DNA from: a virus
DNA: 64,000 nt
Virus record (IMG/VR): IMGVR_UViG_3300029959_001566
Reading direction: 5' to 3' (one strand)
Both the position numbers and the translations under genes were made by a program. Position 1 is the first letter of the stretch. The number at the start of each line of letters is the position of its first letter. Below the pieces are notes generated by a model. The model searched no databases. It was not told the DNA's origin and saw only the letters and a program-made list of their open reading frames with translations. Below, piece by piece: positions 979-64,000 of this stretch.

Positions 979-1599
979 ATGCAGGCTCCAGCCATCGCTA
1001 AAAAGCTCCTCGAAGTCATGAGAGACTGTGCATACATCCAGAAAGACGGCACAAACGACTTTCACAGATACAGATACGTAAGCGCGGCTCATATCATGGA
1101 GCGGGTCAACGAGTCCCTGGTAAAGCACGGCCTGGCCACGGCCCTGGAAGAGGTTGAGGTGGTCAGCCAGGTAGAGAAGGCCAACAGCAAGGGCAGCATA
1201 GATATCCTGGTCACTGTCAGAGTCCACATCAAGATTATCGACGTGGACACAGGCGAGGTCCTGGTGATCAAGGGCCTGGGATCTGGGCAGGACCCGGCAG
1301 ATAAGGGCATAGCAAAGGCTCAGACGCAGGCCTTGAAGATAGCCTGGATGAGCACGCTCGCCATATCGACCGGAGAAGACCCAGAGGCCGATGAGAGGAC
1401 GGATGCCGAGAGCGAGGCTGATAAGAAGCTGGGTACCTGTGAGAGGCTGAAGCGAGAAATCCAGGAGAAGGCAAAGGCCAAAGGGATTGGACCGGAGGAG
1501 CTCATGAAGATCATCTCCAGGAAGTTCAGGGCCGGGGGCATGGGAGATCTGACAGAGGCTCAGAAGAGAGACCTTCTGGAAGCATTGGAGGCATATTGA
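979..1599 (+). CDS. ERF-family single-strand annealing recombinase
   Basis: FHRYRYVSAAHI...GSGQDPADKGIAKAQTQALK...ISTGEDPEAD match ERF motifs. Confidence 0.85.
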   Translation: MQAPAIAKKLLEVMRDCAYIQKDGTNDFHRYRYVSAAHIMERVNESLVKHGLATALEEVEVVSQVEKANSKGSIDILVTVRVHIKIIDVDTGEVLVIKGLGSGQDPADKGIAKAQTQALKIAWMSTLAISTGEDPEADERTDAESEADKKLGTCERLKREIQEKAKAKGIGPEELMKIISRKFRAGGMGDLTEAQKRDLLEALEAY

Positions 1600-2048
1600 G
1601 GATATCAAGAGCAGACCAAAGAATTCTGTACCGTGGATTCATATCAGAGATGCTAGGAAGGCCTCTCAGAAACGACGAAGACGTGCATCATATAAACGGC
1701 AATCATGACGACGATAGGCCGGAGAACCTCATGGTGATGTTTCATAAGGAACATTTCGAGCACCATAGGTCAAGCGCAGTCGTCAGGCGCGGGCATCTTA
1801 AATTCAGATACCCTCTTCCGACCACGTTGAGGTATAACACGATTTGTCCCGAATGCAATTCGTATTTTATTCATGGCGGGTACGGTCTCTGTGTCGATTG
1901 TTATAGTATGGCAATGGAAGGCGAATATCTAAAGTCGATGCGGGGGATGATAGCGATAGATGAAGGGGGTGCGATATTCGTTTTTGGGCGCAAGCCCAAA
2001 TCGTTATCTCGGGAACGTGTAAACCATTTACCTCCTCAGCAGCGCTAA
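1596..2048 (+). CDS. HNH endonuclease with C-terminal Cys motifs
   Basis: EDVHHINGNHDDDRPENL..H..H; CPEC/CVDC. Confidence 0.8.
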   Translation: MRISRADQRILYRGFISEMLGRPLRNDEDVHHINGNHDDDRPENLMVMFHKEHFEHHRSSAVVRRGHLKFRYPLPTTLRYNTICPECNSYFIHGGYGLCVDCYSMAMEGEYLKSMRGMIAIDEGGAIFVFGRKPKSLSRERVNHLPPQQR

Positions 2049-3660: not shown

Positions 3661-3878
3661 GGCATAGCCTCGGGTAGCCAATATACTGAAGGAATAGGGC
3701 CGCCATGCCTCATTTTTGTCTTATCTTTTTTGCTCTTAGCTCCAAGTGTCTTGACTAGGATCCTTGCGGCATGGGGCCTGAAAGGAGGGGCGGCTTTGGC
3801 CGCTATTTCGTTTATGGTCATGGCCTGCGCTTCTGTGGCGGGTATGGCCTTTCGAATTAGCTCATCACGCGACTTCAC
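3657..3878 (-). CDS. Small putative winged-helix protein
   Basis: AMTINEIAAK helix pattern, C-terminal VYWL wing; 4-nt overlaps with both neighbours. Confidence 0.5.
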   Translation of the reverse strand: MKSRDELIRKAIPATEAQAMTINEIAAKAAPPFRPHAARILVKTLGAKSKKDKTKMRHGGPIPSVYWLPEAMP

Positions 3879-4591
3879 AGCATCGCCTCTGGTATCTGCT
3901 GCAGTAGCTCCCTATTCTTTGGCGGCCAATGATCCAGGCAGAGCTTTAGCGCATTGTCTTTTATAAAAAATGGAATGCCTTGGGCAGCGGCCATCGCAGC
4001 AAGGCGGTTTACCCACGATGACTTCGGTATAATCTTATCCTTTCTATTACCAGACTCTGCACCGACTATTGCCCATTGGATGCCTGATAGATCGATCCCC
4101 TCGAGATCCTCAAGCAATGGCTCAAAGCTCACAAACAGTCGATCAGTCCATGCCCCAGAATCGAGGCTTCTTATCCTCCAGGCGTCTTCCTGGCAGGTCA
4201 CGGACACGCCAAACCACATGTTTCTGGGCATGGGCCCTATCATTTCGCCTAAGATCTCTGACATCCTGTCAGGCCTCTTGGTCAGCACCAGGAAAGTATG
4301 GTCTGGCTTGTGTCGAACTGCGTCTATAATTGCCCATACCTGTTCACGATTTACACCAGGGCTGAACCAATCACCCATCGAAGAGAGGAACACTCTCTTG
4401 CCTTTTCCTTTGAGGCCGTAAATGGCGGCCAGCTTGTCGAAGTGGAATGTCGGCTTGAAAGGGTCATCTTTGGGGTAGCCATATCTGCCCTTAAGCCTGT
4501 ATGCCATCTTCCTGGCATAGCAATATTCGCAGCCCTGAGTGCAGCCTGTCAGGGGGTTCACGGTGTCTGTACACCAGCCAATTTTATTCAT
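3875..4591 (-). CDS. DUF5131 / phage Gp37Gp68-family radical-SAM-like protein
   Basis: NPLTGCTQGCEYCYA (CxxxCxxC), VFLSSMGDWF, LTKRPDR, FVSFEPLL, WAIVGAESG. Confidence 0.9.
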   Translation of the reverse strand: MNKIGWCTDTVNPLTGCTQGCEYCYARKMAYRLKGRYGYPKDDPFKPTFHFDKLAAIYGLKGKGKRVFLSSMGDWFSPGVNREQVWAIIDAVRHKPDHTFLVLTKRPDRMSEILGEMIGPMPRNMWFGVSVTCQEDAWRIRSLDSGAWTDRLFVSFEPLLEDLEGIDLSGIQWAIVGAESGNRKDKIIPKSSWVNRLAAMAAAQGIPFFIKDNALKLCLDHWPPKNRELLQQIPEAML

Positions 4592-6339: not shown

Positions 6340-6491
6340 TGGCTGGCTGGAATATAATTCTATCTAGCCAGGGCTTGGCATTGCCGGAGTGGCAGCCCAA
6401 AATTATTTCTCCTCATCTCCTCAACGGGCTTGGCCGGAGCATCGGAGATTTGATATTTGAAAAAATTTGCTAATAGGCAGAATATCAATTA

Positions 6492-6611
6492 TCAACTCAT
6501 CATTTTGTTATGATGCTCCATTCTTCTACGCCTTGCCAGTTCCTCCTCAGTGGGTTTTTTCGGCTTCTTGTCTTGTGCATCCACATCGTCTTTCTTGTTT
6601 TCTTCTGTCAT
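6492..6611 (-). CDS. 39-aa charged peptide (not in ORF track)
   Basis: MTEENKKDDVDAQDKKPKKPTEEELARRRRMEHHNKMMS with a GAGG RBS-like sequence upstream. Confidence 0.45.
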   Translation of the reverse strand: MTEENKKDDVDAQDKKPKKPTEEELARRRRMEHHNKMMS

Positions 6612-6722
6612 GCATCCTCACTATTATTGCTTAAGTCTGCGCGCCATCAGACGAAAAGGCTTTTGGTATCCAAAAGATAGGCTTACCAAAATTATTTCTC
6701 CTCACCTTCTTAATGCTCATTC

Positions 6723-7259
6723 ATGAAGCTCTTGTATATCGGGCTATTGTGCCTGCTGACGATCGTCCCAGCATCGGCAACGACAGTAGAGCAGCGAATT
6801 GGACCTTATGACGTTATCTTTGACCTCACAAACACGTCCTTGATGCTAAACTCATCGGCCAGCTATTGGGATGACAGCAATCCAGACATGGCTTATGGCG
6901 AGGTCTACATTGTTCCGAAAAATCATCCCTCGCTCATGGTGGCCAGTATCAGGATAATGCATAGCGAACTGGGCGTGCAGCTGTACCTGGACTATCTGGA
7001 AGACAGTCTCAGAGACGAGGGCTATGATGATGCGCAGGCTTATACCAGGACCATTGATGGAGACAGTTCGGGCTATTTAGCAACAGCTAAAAACACGACG
7101 ACGGGACGGGTCAAAAACCTTGCAGGGTACCGGCTGGATGGGAAGACCATTGTTGATATTACGAGCTTTCTGTCCGCAGAGGGCGAGATGAGGGATCTAT
7201 TAGACACGATTCACGTGGCAGAAGCTAAGAGCGAGGATGGGCTTGACAGGATACGATGA
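6723..7259 (+). CDS. Secreted protein with signal peptide (GPYDVxF motif)
   Basis: N-terminal K + hydrophobic stretch + ASA cleavage site; resembles 54829..55452. Confidence 0.75.
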   Translation: MKLLYIGLLCLLTIVPASATTVEQRIGPYDVIFDLTNTSLMLNSSASYWDDSNPDMAYGEVYIVPKNHPSLMVASIRIMHSELGVQLYLDYLEDSLRDEGYDDAQAYTRTIDGDSSGYLATAKNTTTGRVKNLAGYRLDGKTIVDITSFLSAEGEMRDLLDTIHVAEAKSEDGLDRIR

Positions 7260-7315: not shown

Positions 7316-8206
7316 TCAAACGCATTGGGTTTGAATCAGTGCCGAGACTATCATCCCAATGGCATCGATATGGGCAGATCTGTCGATCAAGAAAACTCGT
7401 GCCTTGGATTCATTCTCCTTTTGGAACCTGATTCCGTCAGTGTATTTAGTAATATCAACTATTTTATTAAGCGGGTAGGTAGCATTCTTCTTTTGGCCGA
7501 CGAAAATTACTTTTTTATTTGTCACGTATAGAATTCCTGTATCGGTGACTTTTTGATAGCTCTCTCTGATAGGAGTGCCTCTGAAGCTCCCTGTCCTAAA
7601 TGTAACGCCTTTCGCTACTCGAAAGCTGACTCCGCTACTACTACCCACATAACGCGTTTTTGATAGTTCCTCTAGCAGTTGTGCAGGTATAGCAAAATGA
7701 CACACTTCGCCCCCTTTAAGCAGGATATTGACCTGTATAGTTGGAAGAATGCCCTGCGCCAAGATTGTGAGCATTCTGACATCGAGAAGGTTTTGCCGCG
7801 TCTTTTCGGGCAGGTTTGCTTCGGATATTCCAAGAGATCTCAGCATCTCCTCCAGTTCCACTTCCTCGATTTGGTTTATCCAGCCTCTTGAGCAAATTTC
7901 ATTTATCTTTTGATCGCATAGAGCTAAATCAGTCTTTGCGGTCGAGAGACGCAATTTTGCTAGTTCCTTATTAGCTTCCTCGATCTCCTCGTCAGTCAGC
8001 CCAAGGTTGGTTTTAAGCTCTTGAAGAGACCGCTCTTCCTCTTTAGAGAGGTACTTATCTTTTCCAAAATATTTAACCGCATCCAGATATCGCCGGATCT
8101 TTTTATCCTTTTCAGCCTTACAGTCCGGGCACACTGTCTGAGGGCCAAAAAGCTTTCTAAGCCCAGAAGCCCCAAATTCCTTACCGCAGTTAGTACAAAG
8201 AGCCAT
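7316..8206 (-). CDS. Zn-ribbon + helical + PH-like domain moron protein
   Basis: CTNC/CPDC at N-terminus; DTGILYVTNKKVIF PH-like motif; visibly AT-richer than the flanks. Confidence 0.65.
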   Translation of the reverse strand: MALCTNCGKEFGASGLRKLFGPQTVCPDCKAEKDKKIRRYLDAVKYFGKDKYLSKEEERSLQELKTNLGLTDEEIEEANKELAKLRLSTAKTDLALCDQKINEICSRGWINQIEEVELEEMLRSLGISEANLPEKTRQNLLDVRMLTILAQGILPTIQVNILLKGGEVCHFAIPAQLLEELSKTRYVGSSSGVSFRVAKGVTFRTGSFRGTPIRESYQKVTDTGILYVTNKKVIFVGQKKNATYPLNKIVDITKYTDGIRFQKENESKARVFLIDRSAHIDAIGMIVSALIQTQCV

Positions 8207-8223: not shown

Positions 8224-8694
8224 TTAAGCTAAACCCCATCTTCCCAGGAAATCGAGTGACGCAGATTCTTTCTTTGCAAGTCTGTATACATCATAGATCG
8301 CGATAGCCGCTATTATATATACGCCCCATTCGCCCGCCAGGATTCCAATAATAAGAGCTATCAGAAAGACTATCAGCCCCCGTTTCAGTCGTTTTACATA
8401 CCAGTACCCTGCCGGTATGAGGATCAACGTCAACACGGCTGCTATGACAGGATTCCTCTCTTTGGTTGGTTCTATCGGCGGTGTATTATTCTCTTTGATT
8501 GGTGATACTGTGGATGACTGTATTAAGCCACATTTTGTGCAAATCTCGGCACCGGGACTTAATTCAGCACCGCAGTCTGAGCACGTTTTGCCTGCAATCG
8601 CCTCTTGTTCTGCCAGTGATATCCCTCCAAGACAGTAGATGCTTCTTAATGTAGATGAAAAGACTTTTGGTATCCAACAAATAGTTGAGTTCAA
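8224..8694 (-). CDS. Zn-ribbon + TM2-like membrane protein (true start probably downstream of 8694)
   Basis: CSDC/CTKC; NPVIAAVLTLILIPAGYWY pattern. Confidence 0.65.
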   Translation of the reverse strand: MNSTICWIPKVFSSTLRSIYCLGGISLAEQEAIAGKTCSDCGAELSPGAEICTKCGLIQSSTVSPIKENNTPPIEPTKERNPVIAAVLTLILIPAGYWYVKRLKRGLIVFLIALIIGILAGEWGVYIIAAIAIYDVYRLAKKESASLDFLGRWGLA

Positions 8695-8872
8695 CCATCA
8701 ACCTTTTTCTGGGGGTGATAGTCGGGAATCTTTTTTAGTATAATATCACTCTCATCTTCTCCTTCTCCCAACTAACCGTTATACCGAAACCTGGCAAAGT
8801 CCTGCCAGGACCGTACGGGAATTGAACCCTCAAAGAAAATCTGAAAATTAGTTGATAGTTGAACTCAACTAT
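8681..8872. repeat. 192-bp cassette bounded by 22-bp inverted repeats (cassette 1)
   Basis: 8681-8702 ATAGTTGAGTTCAACCATCAAC vs reverse complement of 8851-8872 ATAGTTGAGTTCAACTATCAAC: 21/22. Confidence 0.9.
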
Positions 8873-9399: not shown

Positions 9400-9591
9400 T
9401 CATGCAGAAACGAGAGCTTCAGCGCCCATCTGAGGGTTTAAAGCTGAACTCTCGCTTTTTGCACTAAATCCTCTTTTAATAGTAATCTCTACAAGGTCGC
9501 CCGGTTCGATTCCCATGGCGTCGCGTATGTGCTTGGGAATCATGACCCTACCTATATTATCGGTCTTCAGGGTCGTGGTAATCTCATGCAT
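9400..9591 (-). CDS. AbrB/MazE/SpoVT-family regulator
   Basis: GRVMIPKHIRDAMGIEPGDLVEI signature. Confidence 0.9.
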   Translation of the reverse strand: MHEITTTLKTDNIGRVMIPKHIRDAMGIEPGDLVEITIKRGFSAKSESSALNPQMGAEALVSA

Positions 9592-9599
9592 ACAACGTA

Positions 9600-9704
9600 C
9601 TTAACCCCCTATTCTATATAAGCATTTCCTACAGTTGACGTATGTAGGTAAAAGTTGCATTAGAAAGGGAGAAGATATAAATAGTAGGGAGTAGTAGTTA
9701 GTTT
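9600..9704. promoter_or_regulatory. Divergent promoter region with a putative operator
   Basis: TATA-like elements at 9614-9622 and 9674-9683; CCTACA-N9-TGTAGG at 9628-9648. Confidence 0.5.
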
Positions 9705-10091
9705 ATGCCAGACCCCAAAGGACCAACCGAACTCCCGGCCCCCAAAGCCGGGATCTTAAGCCCGACAGAAGTTCAGGAAATAATCAGCCTTAGAACAGGC
9801 GAGGATAGAATATTAATACCAAAATTACCGGGTCGGGTAATCTTGCCCAACCAGGAAGTAGCCCTGACTAGAAGCAGCGACACTGCGAGGTACTACGTCC
9901 AGACAAAGCAGCCAGACGGCTCCTGGTCATGCGCCTGCGAGGCAGGATCTCACGGCAAGCCCTGTCATCATGTCAAGAGCTTAGAGCGCTACCTCACCAG
10001 GCTGAGTTCAAATAGCCCTGTGCAGCACCTAGGCGAGAGCATGGAGACCTTTCAACGCCGCCAGAACGCAAGAACATCAGCGGAGGCCTGA
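9705..10091 (+). CDS. SWIM zinc-finger protein
   Basis: WSCACEAGSHGKPCHHV (CxC..CxH). Confidence 0.75.
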   Translation: MPDPKGPTELPAPKAGILSPTEVQEIISLRTGEDRILIPKLPGRVILPNQEVALTRSSDTARYYVQTKQPDGSWSCACEAGSHGKPCHHVKSLERYLTRLSSNSPVQHLGESMETFQRRQNARTSAEA

Positions 10092-16234: not shown

Positions 16235-16630
16235 GTGCTGAGATTGGCGGCAGAGGTGCAGCAGCTCAGGGCAGACCTGGCAGCACAGAGCGAACGCGCT
16301 AGGCTGCTGAGTGGCAAGATGATAGACTCCGAGATGACCCAGGACGATATGGTAGCCTCTCTCAACAGGCTTGAGAGGGCCGCCAAAGACGCAGCGCCCA
16401 TAACAGAGTCATCAAAGGCACGGCTCGATCAGTTAGCATCTGAACTGGAAAAGCGCGGCAAGCGAGGCCAAAAGGGCGTCACCTATGCAGAGGCGGGAAA
16501 GATCCTGGGGCTGAGCAAATCAATGATCTGCAGGCTGAGAGGTCAGATTGGCTCCGACCCCAGATTCAATATCAGGTGGCACCCGGTCAAGAAGAATAAG
16601 AAAATCATCTCCTTAAAGAAACTGAGGTGA
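16235..16630 (+). CDS. Coiled-coil + winged-helix DNA-binding protein (P2); 5' end possibly frameshifted
   Basis: Heptads, then VTYAEAGKILGLSKSMICRL HTH; wing ending KIISLKKLR; stop codon abuts cassette 2. Confidence 0.75.
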   Translation: MLRLAAEVQQLRADLAAQSERARLLSGKMIDSEMTQDDMVASLNRLERAAKDAAPITESSKARLDQLASELEKRGKRGQKGVTYAEAGKILGLSKSMICRLRGQIGSDPRFNIRWHPVKKNKKIISLKKLR

Positions 16631-16631
16631 A

Positions 16632-16830
16632 AACGTTGATTCAACGTTCAACGATGTGGGGTGAGATAGGGATAGGTCGATAGTGAATGTAGCAACTCTG
16701 AGTAAAAAAGTATGCTGAATACATATCACATTACGTATAGATAGAAAAGAGAGTATGGATAGGAGTATATAAACAGCACAACGTTCTGCCTTTGAGTTGA
16801 ACTCGAATCGTTGAACGTTGAGTTTACGTT
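16632..16830. repeat. 199-bp cassette bounded by 24-bp inverted repeats (cassette 2)
   Basis: Perfect 15-bp core TCAACGTTCAACGAT (16641-16655) / ATCGTTGAACGTTGA (16807-16821); 21/24 when extended. Confidence 0.9.
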
Positions 16831-16849
16831 ATTTTTTACGAGGTGGAGG

Positions 16850-17233
16850 ATGAAGATCTATATGCCAATTAGCCCGGATGAGGAGCACTACGCAATCTTC
16901 ACGGACAGATCACTAGCAGATACCGTACTGAGGCTCTTCAAGATGAAATTCGATGAAGAGTCTGAGATCCTGGAATACGACACGGACCAGAACACAGCCG
17001 AGCTAAAAGCAGGACTCAAGCCGTGGCTCATCTCTATAGAGCTCCGGGCAGGAATCATCCAGGGCAAGCCGGCAGTCGAGCTACAATGGCCACCACTACC
17101 AGAGGGTATCATCACCCAGAATGACGGCATGGTGCAGTATGCCTGCTGGGCAAAATCACCAGACGATGCCATCAGGCGCATTCCAGGCATGATAAAGGAT
17201 GCCCACGAAACCGCAATCGAGGTCGAGGCATGA
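16850..17233 (+). CDS. Hypothetical protein
   Basis: GGAGG RBS before ATG 16850. Confidence 0.65.
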   Translation: MKIYMPISPDEEHYAIFTDRSLADTVLRLFKMKFDEESEILEYDTDQNTAELKAGLKPWLISIELRAGIIQGKPAVELQWPPLPEGIITQNDGMVQYACWAKSPDDAIRRIPGMIKDAHETAIEVEA

Positions 17234-17763: not shown

Positions 17764-18078
17764 ATGTCCGATAAGACCGACCTCTACTCAGACCGGGGCG
17801 TCTTGCTCAAGTCTGATGCGGATCTAAGCGCCCATTCTCTTCTGAAGGGTAATACTATGCACAGGCTCATTGCAATGACTAAGAGGATTACCACAGTCTT
17901 TCCGGTGGGCGCCGAGCCAGACCAGATACACAGCACATCGAGCGGGTACGGAGTGGTCGCCAGACCTTCGAAGCCACACGGCGGCTTTAGAACCCGTCAC
18001 TCAAAGCCCAGTCCGGCTGAGATCAAAGCCCAAAGACTGGTCTGGAAGAAAGAGAACAGGACCGGGAAGTGGCACTGA
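17764..18078 (+). CDS. Hypothetical basic protein
   Basis: Operon packing. Confidence 0.55.
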   Translation: MSDKTDLYSDRGVLLKSDADLSAHSLLKGNTMHRLIAMTKRITTVFPVGAEPDQIHSTSSGYGVVARPSKPHGGFRTRHSKPSPAEIKAQRLVWKKENRTGKWH

Positions 18079-19851: not shown

Positions 19852-20090
19852 CCGTGCGTAGCAGTAATACACGAGCCAACTATGCAAAATATCAGGTTCT
19901 CACGGCCATCAGAACACATCCTGGCTGCCACCTCCGCGACCTGGGTAGAATATGCCAGCGCGATTTCAAAGGAATCTGGAGCCTTGGCAAGGTTCAATGG
20001 ATAGTTGATGATCTGGAAGGGCGAAATAAAATCAGGTCAGAAATATGCATTGACAGGGGGCACACTTGCAGGAAGCTGTTTGCGCTTTAG
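19821..20090 (+). CDS. Winged-helix protein
   Basis: VLTAIRTHPGCHLRDL..VQWIVDDLEGRNKI. Confidence 0.65.
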   Translation: MGACGRAGGITVRSSNTRANYAKYQVLTAIRTHPGCHLRDLGRICQRDFKGIWSLGKVQWIVDDLEGRNKIRSEICIDRGHTCRKLFAL

Positions 20091-20155
20091 GCCCTCAATT
20101 ACATACTAGTATGGATCTTCAGCCATGCTCTATTGAGGAGAGAAAATCGCGGCCC

Positions 20156-20557
20156 ATGAAAAAACTGACCTGTGTCTTCAGAGAATGCCCGACATTTCGG
20201 GCCATCTGGCTGACCAAGGCAAGGGCTGACGCTACACACTCCCTACAATCGGTTGCGGGACAGGATGACCACGGAAGACTCATCTACAGAGGCAAGCTCT
20301 ACAATAGGCGTTCCTGGTCCTGGCGACCGCCTAAGATCATCTGGAGTCAGGGCAGGAGGGCACACGAACCCCCAAACCCCGATAACGCCAGGGTCCACAT
20401 ACTGAAAGAGGTTCTAAAAAACGGCGTTCTGTGCGTGGTAGCGATCAACAAATGCGATTGCGGTGGCCACCTTATACGGGATCTCATGACCTCCGATCTG
20501 TACTGTGAAGAATGCGGCCTGGTTTATGATAAAATAGTCTGGCTGCGAGAATATTGA
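20156..20557 (+). CDS. Protein with C-terminal TFIIB-type zinc ribbon
   Basis: CDCGGHLIRDLMTSDLYCEECGLVYD. Confidence 0.7.
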   Translation: MKKLTCVFRECPTFRAIWLTKARADATHSLQSVAGQDDHGRLIYRGKLYNRRSWSWRPPKIIWSQGRRAHEPPNPDNARVHILKEVLKNGVLCVVAINKCDCGGHLIRDLMTSDLYCEECGLVYDKIVWLREY

Positions 20558-21346: not shown

Positions 21347-21808
21347 ATGAAGATAACTCCGGAAATACAACAATTCATTTACAACAATAATACTCTTAGC
21401 AGCAGGGCATTAGTGCCCATAATAGAGAGCACCTTCGGTGTCACGCTCACACACAAGGCGATTGAGCCTCACCTATCCAAGGCCCGGCTCGGCGTCCAGG
21501 CCGGCAACGCTGCTAAGGTCGCAGCCATCCAGGCCGAGGTCCTGAGCAATGAGAAGAGATATGTCGATAGGTACCTCGACTTTCTAGATAAAGAGATAGA
21601 AGCCTGGAATAAGCTCCTAGAGACGGGCGTCCAGGTCTTCCCCAAGAGAGATAATGAAGTCGAGCCGAGAGAGATCACCATAAACGATATCAAGGACAGG
21701 GCAGCAGCAAGCCAGAACCTGCTAAAGTGCATAAACTCCGTCCTTGATTTCGTGAAACCTCAGCCGGAATCCGGCGCCAAGGCTAAATTTGAATGGCTTA
21801 AAGAATGA
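21347..21808 (+). CDS. Putative terminase small subunit
   Basis: N-terminal HTH-like region, coiled coil, overlaps the TerL start. Confidence 0.65.
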   Translation: MKITPEIQQFIYNNNTLSSRALVPIIESTFGVTLTHKAIEPHLSKARLGVQAGNAAKVAAIQAEVLSNEKRYVDRYLDFLDKEIEAWNKLLETGVQVFPKRDNEVEPREITINDIKDRAAASQNLLKCINSVLDFVKPQPESGAKAKFEWLKE

Positions 21809-63100: not shown

Positions 63101-64000
63101 TCAGATGCCAAGCTGCGGAATATGTGCCATATAGCTTTCCCTCAACTCCTTTCTATCGATGTGGTTATATATATCTACAGCCTCGTTCCTGACATCGCCT
63201 CTAAGCTCCTTCACGAAGTCCCTGGACATGCCCGACCTAATTAAGTACGTCGTAAACCAATGTCGGCAACAGTGGGGTGTGAAGCGCTCCTCCTGCCGTT
63301 TAGACTCTGGTATATGGAGCCCAACCCTGGTGGCGTGCAGGATCACCAGCTTATGCACCTCGCTGGGGCTGATCCTGGACGATACCCGGCTCGGAAATAG
63401 GGCCCTATCGGTCTTTTCTCTGTTCTCCCTGGCCCTGATCCAGGCTGCCAGGATATTAGCAGTTTCATAATCGAAATATAGTAGCCGATTGCTTCTTTTC
63501 GCTGTTGGCTTCAGCATTACTTCCATTCTCTCCAGGGATACATCATCGACGTCCAGGGCTGCAAGCTCTGCCCGCCTCATCCCGGTCTTAGCCAGCAGGG
63601 TCACTATGGCTTTATCCCGGCTGTCCAGAATAGAGCTGATGAGCATGGCCATTTGTTCTACAGATATGAGCTGCCTGGGGTCCGGCACCTCCTCCTTATA
63701 TCCCTTCAGGTAACGCCGACGAAAGGGTATTATGGGGTTGGTTTCGACCTGGCCCTCTTCTACCAGGTACTCGTAGAAGGTGGACAGGCAGGCAAAGCAA
63801 TGGTCCAGGGACCTCTGCTTTACATCTCTTTCTCTGAACGCCTCCAGGAAGGCTTTGAGGTCTGGCCGGGTCACATCCTGGGGCCGTACTCTCCGGGCCT
63901 CCAGGAATGCACAATACCGCCTGACATATCTATAGTAGGTGCTGGCTGTCTTCATGCGCCTGAGCTGGCAGTCTGCGAGAAAGTCCTCTGCTATACCCAT
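63101..64000 (-). CDS. int: Tyrosine recombinase/integrase (XerC/D-like)
   Basis: TGMR, TAK, HCCRH, LRG and DIY catalytic motifs. Confidence 0.93.
   Translation of the reverse strand: MGIAEDFLADCQLRRMKTASTYYRYVRRYCAFLEARRVRPQDVTRPDLKAFLEAFRERDVKQRSLDHCFACLSTFYEYLVEEGQVETNPIIPFRRRYLKGYKEEVPDPRQLISVEQMAMLISSILDSRDKAIVTLLAKTGMRRAELAALDVDDVSLERMEVMLKPTAKRSNRLLYFDYETANILAAWIRARENREKTDRALFPSRVSSRISPSEVHKLVILHATRVGLHIPESKRQEERFTPHCCRHWFTTYLIRSGMSRDFVKELRGDVRNEAVDIYNHIDRKELRESYMAHIPQLGI

Follow-up and report, generated by a model that had tools for sequence, protein, structure and literature searches.

The gene that we call P2 lies at 16235..16630 on the plus strand of a 64-kb stretch of DNA from an apparently archaeal-type tailed virus (IMG/VR record IMGVR_UViG_3300029959_001566), which was analysed over its whole length of 64,000 nucleotides and is referred to here as the window. 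Directly behind the gene stands an inverted repeat whose two arms enclose a unit of about 200 bp, cassette 2. Gene and unit together most probably form a previously undescribed genetic switch bordering the early genes, and we lean towards the interpretation that the arms form a gene-linked pair of operators, looping or gating a promoter at the border of the early region. This interpretation starts from four things that can be observed: the anatomy of the unit, its conservation, the co-variation of protein and site, and the fold of the protein. Literature searches returned no description of a P2 gene with a 200-bp unit.

The repeat unit and its protein

Read from a GTG at 16235 (an alternative start is the TTG at 16244), the open reading frame (ORF) called as P2 encodes 131 amino acids and ends with a TGA stop at 16628-16630. 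One nucleotide further on begins the proximal, or left, arm (16632..16655), which has its counterpart in the distal, or right, arm at 16807..16830. The arms are 24 nt long and complementary at 21/24 positions (88%), with a perfect 15-bp core, and are separated by a gap of 151 nt, giving an outer span of 199 bp; a repeat of just these dimensions had been described here by a short earlier note on this DNA, the original prediction. The left arm combines a perfect 17-bp palindrome, AACGTTGA-T-TCAACGTT, with an extra half-site copy on its inner side, the third heptad TTCAACG. The right arm mirrors this with the heptads CGTTGAA and CGTTGAG and a degenerate outer heptad, and would fall within a predicted 5' leader. 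Set in register with its relatives, each arm consists of three abutting 7-mers, the first inverted and the other two direct (TTCAACG in the window).

The interior of cassette 2 has a guanine-plus-cytosine (GC) content of 38.4% against 52.8% for the window and is 62.9% purine on the plus strand, which agrees with the A/T-rich, purine-skewed composition claimed for it. No target-site duplication was found, again as predicted, the flanks of the cassette being ...GGTGAAA and ATTTTTT.... A motif said to be shared with a second unit of this kind, cassette 1, is present as well: it is GTTGAACTC, whose copies in cassette 1 lie at 8858-8866 and 8687-8695. Cassettes 1 and 2 are the two best inverted-repeat pairs in the window. 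Inverted repeats of at least 21/24 with a gap of 100-300 nt number five there and none in five shuffles, and the repeat of cassette 2 exceeds what chance would produce.

Beyond the right arm, a T6 run (16832-16837) and a Shine-Dalgarno-like GAGGTGGAGG (16840-16849) lie within 16832..16849 on the plus strand ahead of an ATG at 16850. The gene starting there (16850..17233, plus strand) encodes 127 amino acids with a DUF7336-like lead, and its homologues come after the cassette in four other loci, L001, L008, L010 and L011. The arm sites of P2, and likewise those of P1, the protein gene of cassette 1, occur nowhere else in the 64 kb than beside their own gene, and no similar DNA was found in the phage collection. 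Rfam and tRNA scans over 8-17.6 kb returned nothing, RNAalifold detected no conserved RNA structure in the cassette interior, and a scan for bacterial promoters and terminators was uninformative.

Scans of viral and metagenome contigs yielded 25 loci, some of them duplicates or truncated, and cassette structure was counted in 18. The wide alignment A1 proved too divergent for use in locus scans, and nothing came from single-protein scans of viral contigs or from four scans of genome contigs. In every locus with enough downstream DNA, an inverted repeat follows the stop codon of the P2 homologue, starting in the 18 loci between 23 nt before and 24 nt after the last base of that codon. Despite different arm sequences, the geometry of the cassette is held to within a base or two in 14 loci: the repeat spans 193-204 bp (199-204 in all except L010), a GTATG motif stands at +75 to +81 from the repeat start in 13 of the 14, and a TATA box at +131 to +137 in all of them. 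In outline, GTATG stands at +78, the TATA box at +134 and the end of the second arm at about +200. Distant members span 211, 221-223 and 263 bp. The orientation of the interior relative to the gene is identical in 18/18 loci.

Where the repeat begins before the stop codon, operator and coding sequence overlap. The last 4-9 codons of the P2 homologues in L007, L010, L011, L014, L001 and L008 are encoded by the proximal arm, giving protein tails such as ...EIVELNVQ or ...RRIV.

According to its AlphaFold2 model (predicted local distance difference test, pLDDT, 91.5), P2 is an N-terminal coiled coil with a C-terminal winged helix: helices at residues 2-30 and 36-52 precede a winged helix at 58-127 in the order helix, short strand, helix, helix, beta-hairpin. 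That the window holds a second coiled-coil and winged-helix gene with its own cognate inverted-repeat cassette, as had been proposed, is supported. Foldseek ranked MarR-type regulators first, with weak E-values (~1e-3), and an independent structural search gave generic winged-helix matches (VIA Z 7.5-8.9). The Pfam MarR models do not match P2 at E<=1, and a PDB sequence search with the P2 family profile returned coiled coils only. As modelled, P2 stops with the wing at residue 127 and its helices are N-terminal only, so it would lack the MarR-style dimer interface that flanks the winged helix.

Pfam and PHROGs scans assigned no family to P2, P1 or most of their neighbours, and a word-based homologue search returned P2 itself only; relatives came from an exhaustive HMMER/phmmer search, which gave 39 representative proteins (17/39 at E<=1e-10). 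These are 118-229 amino acids long and share the C-terminal 80 residues, while their N-terminal helical regions vary in length. The family was aligned in A1 and A2, and its consensus is GQxGVTYxEAAKIL...SKSRICQLR...RFNISWHP..KN.KII.LK. None of the 39 relatives carries a fused domain.

The main evidence that P2 binds the arms is the way in which arms and recognition helix vary together, a pattern that supports binding across the sequences compared. At least nine heptad types occur: TTCAACG, TTAAACG, TTTAACG/CTTAACG, TTCATCG, TTTCCCG, TTCACCG, TGCACCG, TTTCTAG and TTTAGGG. When left and right arms were compared across 11 loci, 95.8% of cells were complementary and 11/22 pairs had changed on both sides; none of 500 shuffles reached this level, and slid controls stayed at or below 41%. 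Heptad distance correlates with recognition-helix distance (Mantel r 0.76, p 2e-4), and the correlation persists once the rest of the domain is removed (partial r 0.45, p 2e-4). With the remainder of the domain, too, the heptads diverge in parallel (r 0.41), which makes shared ancestry part of the signal. Particular helix motifs go with particular heptads, RxCQLR with TT(A/T)AACG, (M/S)IC(R/K)LR with TTCAACG and TIKKLH with TTCACCG. Protein-site co-evolution, one of the two possibilities raised by the original prediction, is in this way supported: the units within an arm and the two arms change in concert, and the heptads track the helix.

A candidate promoter between the arms

Alignment A6 delimits two boxes on the plus strand of the interior, and a third element adjoins them. 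Box A (16710..16726), 78 nt from the repeat start, is an invariant GTATG followed by an A-rich tract; box C (16730..16764) is a TTAC/TTAG... element with a purine-rich tract that runs up to the TATA box; and box B (16765..16773) is GTATATAAA, a candidate archaeal TATA box directed towards the downstream gene. A small palindrome, GAGTTGAACTC, lies at 16794..16804, at the predicted transcription start, and has 9 nt in common with the P1 operator. Both GTATATAAA and GAGTTGAACTC had been picked out beforehand, and they are where they were said to be; what had been missed is the probable nature of GTATATAAA as a conserved, precisely placed TATA box of archaeal type facing the next gene.

The sequence TATATAAA is found once in the window, inside cassette 2. 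It resembles the probable early promoter ATATAAATA at 9675, 22 nt ahead of the ATG at 9705, a distance at which a leaderless archaeal transcript would be expected to start. A purine-rich tract on the plus strand precedes both the TATA box of cassette 2 and ATATAAATA. The published archaeal core promoter is likewise a purine-rich B recognition element (BRE) upstream of a TTTAWATA-type TATA box (PMC11065993). The alignment of 11 cassettes is nearly gap-free, and its invariant interior positions are GTATG, the TA of TTAG/TTAC and the TAT..AA of the TATA box. The TATA box and the purine-rich tract upstream of it are the best-conserved element of the interior while the arms vary, a pattern that fits host TBP and TFB reading the centre and virus-specific proteins reading the arms.

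Because the usual distance from TATA box to start is ~23-27 nt, transcription is predicted to begin near 16795-16800, which would put the distal arm at about +10 to +35 of the transcript. A protein bound in the early leader would hinder recruitment or escape of the polymerase, as archaeal repressors do. Downstream of the distal arm, a gene start on the same strand is present in 17/18 loci of the rightward type, none having been located in L024. Where measured, the start codon lies ~8-60 nt past the arm, with a ribosome-binding-site-like motif in several loci. The gene itself differs from locus to locus, being DUF7336-like in five and of other kinds elsewhere. Box A, for its part, lies near the midpoint between the arms; its A-tracts, which in many loci are about one helical turn apart, would favour bending of the DNA.

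Smaller elements of the cassette and its leader are present in some of the loci. Between the distal arm and the ribosome-binding site, a motif TTAACGCCGTTAAC is present in L001, L007, L008, L010, L011, L014 and L025 whatever their heptad type, with related forms in L003, L018 and L020; the window has its T6 run (16832-16837) in place of TTAACGCCGTTAAC. Small palindromes that differ between lineages occupy two fixed places, one just before box A at about +45 to +65 (L001, L007/L011, L008/L010, L012) and one at the predicted transcription start at about +150 to +165 (the window, L005, L008, L010, L014). A second dimeric protein might bind them, or they might form hairpins.

From these elements we propose the following mechanism. 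P2 would oligomerise through its N-terminal coiled coil and bind the heptad arrays in both arms behind its own gene, arms that would bracket an archaeal-type core promoter (purine-rich tract and GTATATAAA) pointing at the next gene. With both arms occupied, ~183 bp apart from centre to centre, and box A near the middle, the promoter could be enclosed in a loop or a wrapped complex. Such a complex would gate transcription out of the early region, both by controlling internal initiation and by blocking read-through from the early operon, and its net effect could be either repression or activation. Two features of a looping system, a pair of cognate operator sets around a promoter and a predicted oligomerisation domain, are present as far as they can be read from sequence.

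Sister modules and competing explanations

Cassette 2 has a counterpart on the other side of the early region. The P1 gene (8869..9288, minus strand) encodes 139 amino acids, predicted to form a coiled coil and a winged helix, and is followed by cassette 1 (8681..8872, minus strand; 192 bp), with arms at 8681-8702 and 8851-8872. Its arms have the same layout as those of module 2 with a different flank (ATAGTTGA versus AACGTTGA), and on the minus strand its interior contains a TATA-like TATTATAC together with the TTAGTT-purine tract of the box C region, which recurs also in L026. A direct alignment of cassette 1 with cassette 2 is not significant beyond the ends; a TTAGTT-purine-TATA layout common to the two becomes visible only via other loci, and the interiors of the leftward cassettes have this layout among themselves as well. 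Upstream of P1 is a small AbrB/SpoVT-like gene (9400..9591, minus strand), and the same synteny is found in a related virus, G002.

BLASTP finds no match between P1 and P2, and their profiles align in register but weakly (hhalign probability 8.6%, E 0.004). The P1 model, built from three sequences (pLDDT 80.6), nevertheless has the same order of elements as that of P2 and largely the same matches among solved winged helices. In addition, a protein of L026, which belongs to the related virus G002 (1270-1674, minus strand), bridges the two, matching the P2 profile over its full length (95.7%, E 9.5e-9) and the P1 profile in its N-terminal part (54%). P1 and P2 therefore probably share a fold and are distant paralogues, and the notion that they might be structurally unrelated does not agree with the modelled fold order and the bridging homologue.

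In the window, P1 follows the AbrB-like gene on the minus strand and precedes cassette 1, and the rightward early block ends with P2. G002 (37 kb, 97% complete) has the same arrangement: on its minus strand an AbrB-like gene, a coiled-coil winged-helix gene and a 199-bp inverted-repeat cassette, and ~5.5 kb to the right, on the plus strand, a P2-type module. In both viruses, then, the early region lies between two modules that differ in specificity, and on either side the gene of the module comes last among the early genes. A module at either border fits gates on outward transcription better than replicons captured by chance, and P1 with cassette 1 would be a paralogous gate on the other side. 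The suggestion of two captured replicons, made in the original prediction alongside co-evolution, is not upheld, since the module is not accompanied by a replication gene and G002 has the paired layout too, which speaks for conservation rather than a chance capture.

Several points weigh against an operator pair that gates a promoter. Binding, looping, promoter activity and the direction of regulation are steps that we infer, and archaeal promoter rules have been applied to a virus whose host is itself deduced from its DNA. Box A and the lineage-specific small palindromes would be left unaccounted for. The arm-to-arm distances of the distant members (189, ~205 and ~245 bp) are out of helical phase. 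A dimeric winged-helix repressor would not usually read three 7-bp units in a row, and the stoichiometry on them, too, would be left unaccounted for. The window copy has a T6 run in its predicted leader. Finally, there is one clear exception among the cassettes: the leftward one of G002 points at the 3' end of a LamG-like late gene that converges on it, and all that follows the arm is a remnant resembling a ribosome-binding site.

That G002 cassette, which persists without a clear downstream gene, is one of the observations that would be more readily understood if the unit were a replication origin. P2 would then be an origin-binding initiator, and the inverted heptad arrays would flank an AT-rich unwinding region, as in the archaeal arrangement of a DNA unwinding element (DUE) between two origin recognition boxes (ORB-DUE-ORB). 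Inverted multi-unit arrays around an interior of 38% GC with A-tracts, a rigid cassette geometry, and an adjacent initiator-like gene whose specificity co-evolves with its sites as in Rep-iteron pairs are all in keeping with such a role. Moreover, since the window showed no recognisable replication gene, it must contain an initiator that has escaped notice; the 411-aa early protein gave no replication lead. On the other hand, the best-conserved interior element is directional, a TATA box with its purine tract, and is followed by a same-strand gene start in 17/18 P2-type loci. P2 is small (131 amino acids), comprising by prediction a coiled coil and a winged helix alone, and no longer fused forms occur among its 39 relatives. 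The presence of two modules of different specificity per virus also speaks against an origin, and G004 (L033; 15,452 bp, estimated complete), an element with one module, encodes a D5-like primase-helicase of its own. Neither GC nor AT skew changes sign across 15-18 kb, a weak test given that skew follows gene orientation here. There is also a precedent in pRN1 ORF80, a small site-specific zipper protein that was first proposed as an origin binder and proved dispensable for replication (PMC4234260). Overall, we regard an origin as a possible but rather unlikely function of the unit. If it were true, it would reveal a new type of archaeal viral replication origin.

A broader variant seems to us about equally doubtful. 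In methanogen viruses the modules might be a new class of self-contained, swappable protein-and-site units whose heptads come in nine or more orthogonal specificities. An oligomer of the coiled-coil winged-helix protein, perhaps a trimer as in heat-shock factor, would read three contiguous heptads per arm and build a fixed 200-bp nucleoprotein particle. Its role would be either to fire replication, which would make it a new type of initiator and origin present twice per genome, or to couple replication to transcription at the early borders.

We consider it improbable that the unit is a nucleoprotein site without promoter control, with P2 as its adaptor, serving centromere-like segregation, packaging recognition or pure insulation of transcription. 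An arrangement of heptad boxes in inverted arms, with a centre that may be bent, directly downstream of the gene for a binding protein, recalls parS of bacteriophage P1 behind parB and cosB bound by the small terminase of lambda, and the leftward copy of G002 stands between convergent units. All three functions leave the conserved TATA box and the downstream gene start unexplained, however. No partition NTPase is found beside any module, and plasmid-type segregation is not required of a virus whose window encodes an integrase. For packaging, the position of a small terminase, ahead of an ORF at 21805 with the size of a large terminase, is already taken by another gene; neither that gene nor the ORF matched a Pfam family, and their role is suggested by gene order with the portal.

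Two further explanations are very improbable. Repeats of ~24 bp that enclose a promoter-like segment of 150 bp do resemble those of bacterial invertons, with the promoter here being a predicted one, yet an invertible promoter, or a miniature mobile element with terminal inverted repeats, would have to be reconciled with a single interior orientation in 18/18 loci, with the lack of a target-site duplication, with arms that are found nowhere else in the window and are always gene-linked in other loci, with a heptad and palindrome structure that fits the binding of an oligomeric protein, and with the integrase gene ~46 kb away (63101-64000) as the only recombinase found. Nor is the unit a miniature inverted-repeat transposable element occurring independently of the gene, the sites being confined to the vicinity of the gene, and a mobile or invertible cassette finds no support in an orientation that is constant over 18 loci, the absence of an adjacent recombinase and the missing target duplication. 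Pairing of the arms in RNA, as a long-range stem in a read-through transcript acting in processing or attenuation, would account for the 22 complementary positions with their compensatory changes, but each arm is a palindrome plus a tandem heptad repeat, a periodicity that a stem does not need, the heptads track the recognition helix of P2, and neither a conserved interior structure nor an Rfam match was found.

Known systems and the virus

The proposed pair of operators around a promoter has its closest functional parallels in looping repressors. GalR with HU, AraC and lambda CI all act through two operators around a promoter, and the P2 unit is like them in having two cognate operator sets around a candidate promoter, a predicted oligomeric regulator and a probably bendable segment near the middle. 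Unlike them, it has an archaeal-type TATA promoter and mirror-oriented triple-heptad operators, it is tied to the 3' end of the regulator gene, and its spacing is fixed at the nucleotide level; looping itself is predicted here. With MarR regulators (PefR 7dvs, MexR 4zzl and archaeal BldR 3f3x) P2 shares the winged-helix fold and palindromic sites, whereas it is predicted to oligomerise by a long N-terminal coiled coil of variable length, ends at the wing and has no evident ligand pocket. Lambda Q, with PR' and qut, is a phage regulator whose gene lies directly upstream of its target promoter. As in that case, the last gene of the early operon here encodes a putative DNA-binding regulator with its site in the promoter region just downstream, and gene and site are exchanged as a specificity module; the fold of P2 is unrelated to that of Q, and the P2 sites lie on both sides of the promoter.

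Among archaeal systems, Orc1/Cdc6 origins also have inverted elements flanking an AT-rich segment beside the gene of the binding protein, a likeness of layout. They differ in that the P2 unit contains a directional TATA box and occurs as two modules per virus, and family scans found no AAA+ or Cdc6 match in P2 and its neighbours. The pRN1 ORF80 protein (PlrA) of Sulfolobus plasmids is a small, conserved and highly site-specific DNA-binding protein of the zipper type from an archaeal mobile element, and its sites adjoin the gene that encodes it (PMC4234260 and Lipps 2001, cited therein), traits in which P2 would resemble it. Its sites are upstream of the gene, its fold is different, and it is dispensable for replication (PMC4234260). 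A predicted leucine-zipper repressor, SMV2 gp37, has been connected with inverted repeats at the BRE of archaeal-virus early promoters (PMC11065993), and the combination of a conserved core promoter, virus-specific inverted repeats and a coiled-coil protein is common to both systems. In SMV2, by contrast, the repeats overlap the BRE of many promoters, while in the P2 system each regulator would have a single target, whose triple-heptad arms lie 183 bp from each other.

To our knowledge, little has been established about gene control in methanogen viruses, and few cases of archaeal promoter looping have been worked out. The P2 family offers a compact system that is directly testable, with one small protein, one 200-bp target and spacing fixed to the nucleotide, and where the heptads vary in nature, the recognition helix varies to match. 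If the proposed gating is correct, it would define how these viruses keep early and later transcription apart to either side of the control region, and the family would provide a readable code of protein-DNA recognition as well as orthogonal regulator-operator pairs for methanogen genetics.

The archaeal reading of the window draws on a virus gene resembling the beta subunit of methyl-coenzyme M reductase (MCR), on a match to a TFIIB-type zinc ribbon and on the promoter-like sequences. In the first of these genes (17764-18078, plus strand; 104 amino acids), the initial 44-46 residues match the N-terminus of MCR beta (Pfam MCR_beta_N, E 1.7e-5, above threshold). The gene could be a piece acquired from the host or could act as a decoy, and the genome-contig search found no close relative of it. 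The zinc-ribbon match (E 4e-4, below threshold) is at the C-terminus of a 163-aa protein (20066-20557, plus strand), which could be a virus factor that touches the host transcription machinery.

The segment 9600-9705 holds the probable early rightward promoter, with TATA-like sequences TTCTATATAAGC at ~9612 and GATATAAATA at 9674 and a short palindrome CTACA...TGTAG between them. The position of the second box, GATATAAATA, 22 nt before the ATG at 9705 suggests a leaderless transcript.

In G002, the first rightward early gene (L026 2144-3151, plus strand) encodes a 335-aa pentapeptide-repeat protein with ADLSG/ANLSR repeats, which could be a DNA mimic or an anti-defence protein. G004 is a miniature head-tail element with a D5_N/DUF5906 primase-helicase, a large terminase, a portal and a coat protein. 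Two genes past its cassette there is a Cas2-like gene (6489-6779), and arrays of TTGGGCCC-type repeats with 8-bp spacing occupy 7532-7909.

The window itself encodes an ERF-type single-strand annealing protein (979-1599, plus strand) and, at its right end, a tyrosine integrase (63101-64000, minus strand); the virus is probably temperate and integrating. A DUF5131/radical-SAM-like gene lies at 3875-4591 on the minus strand.

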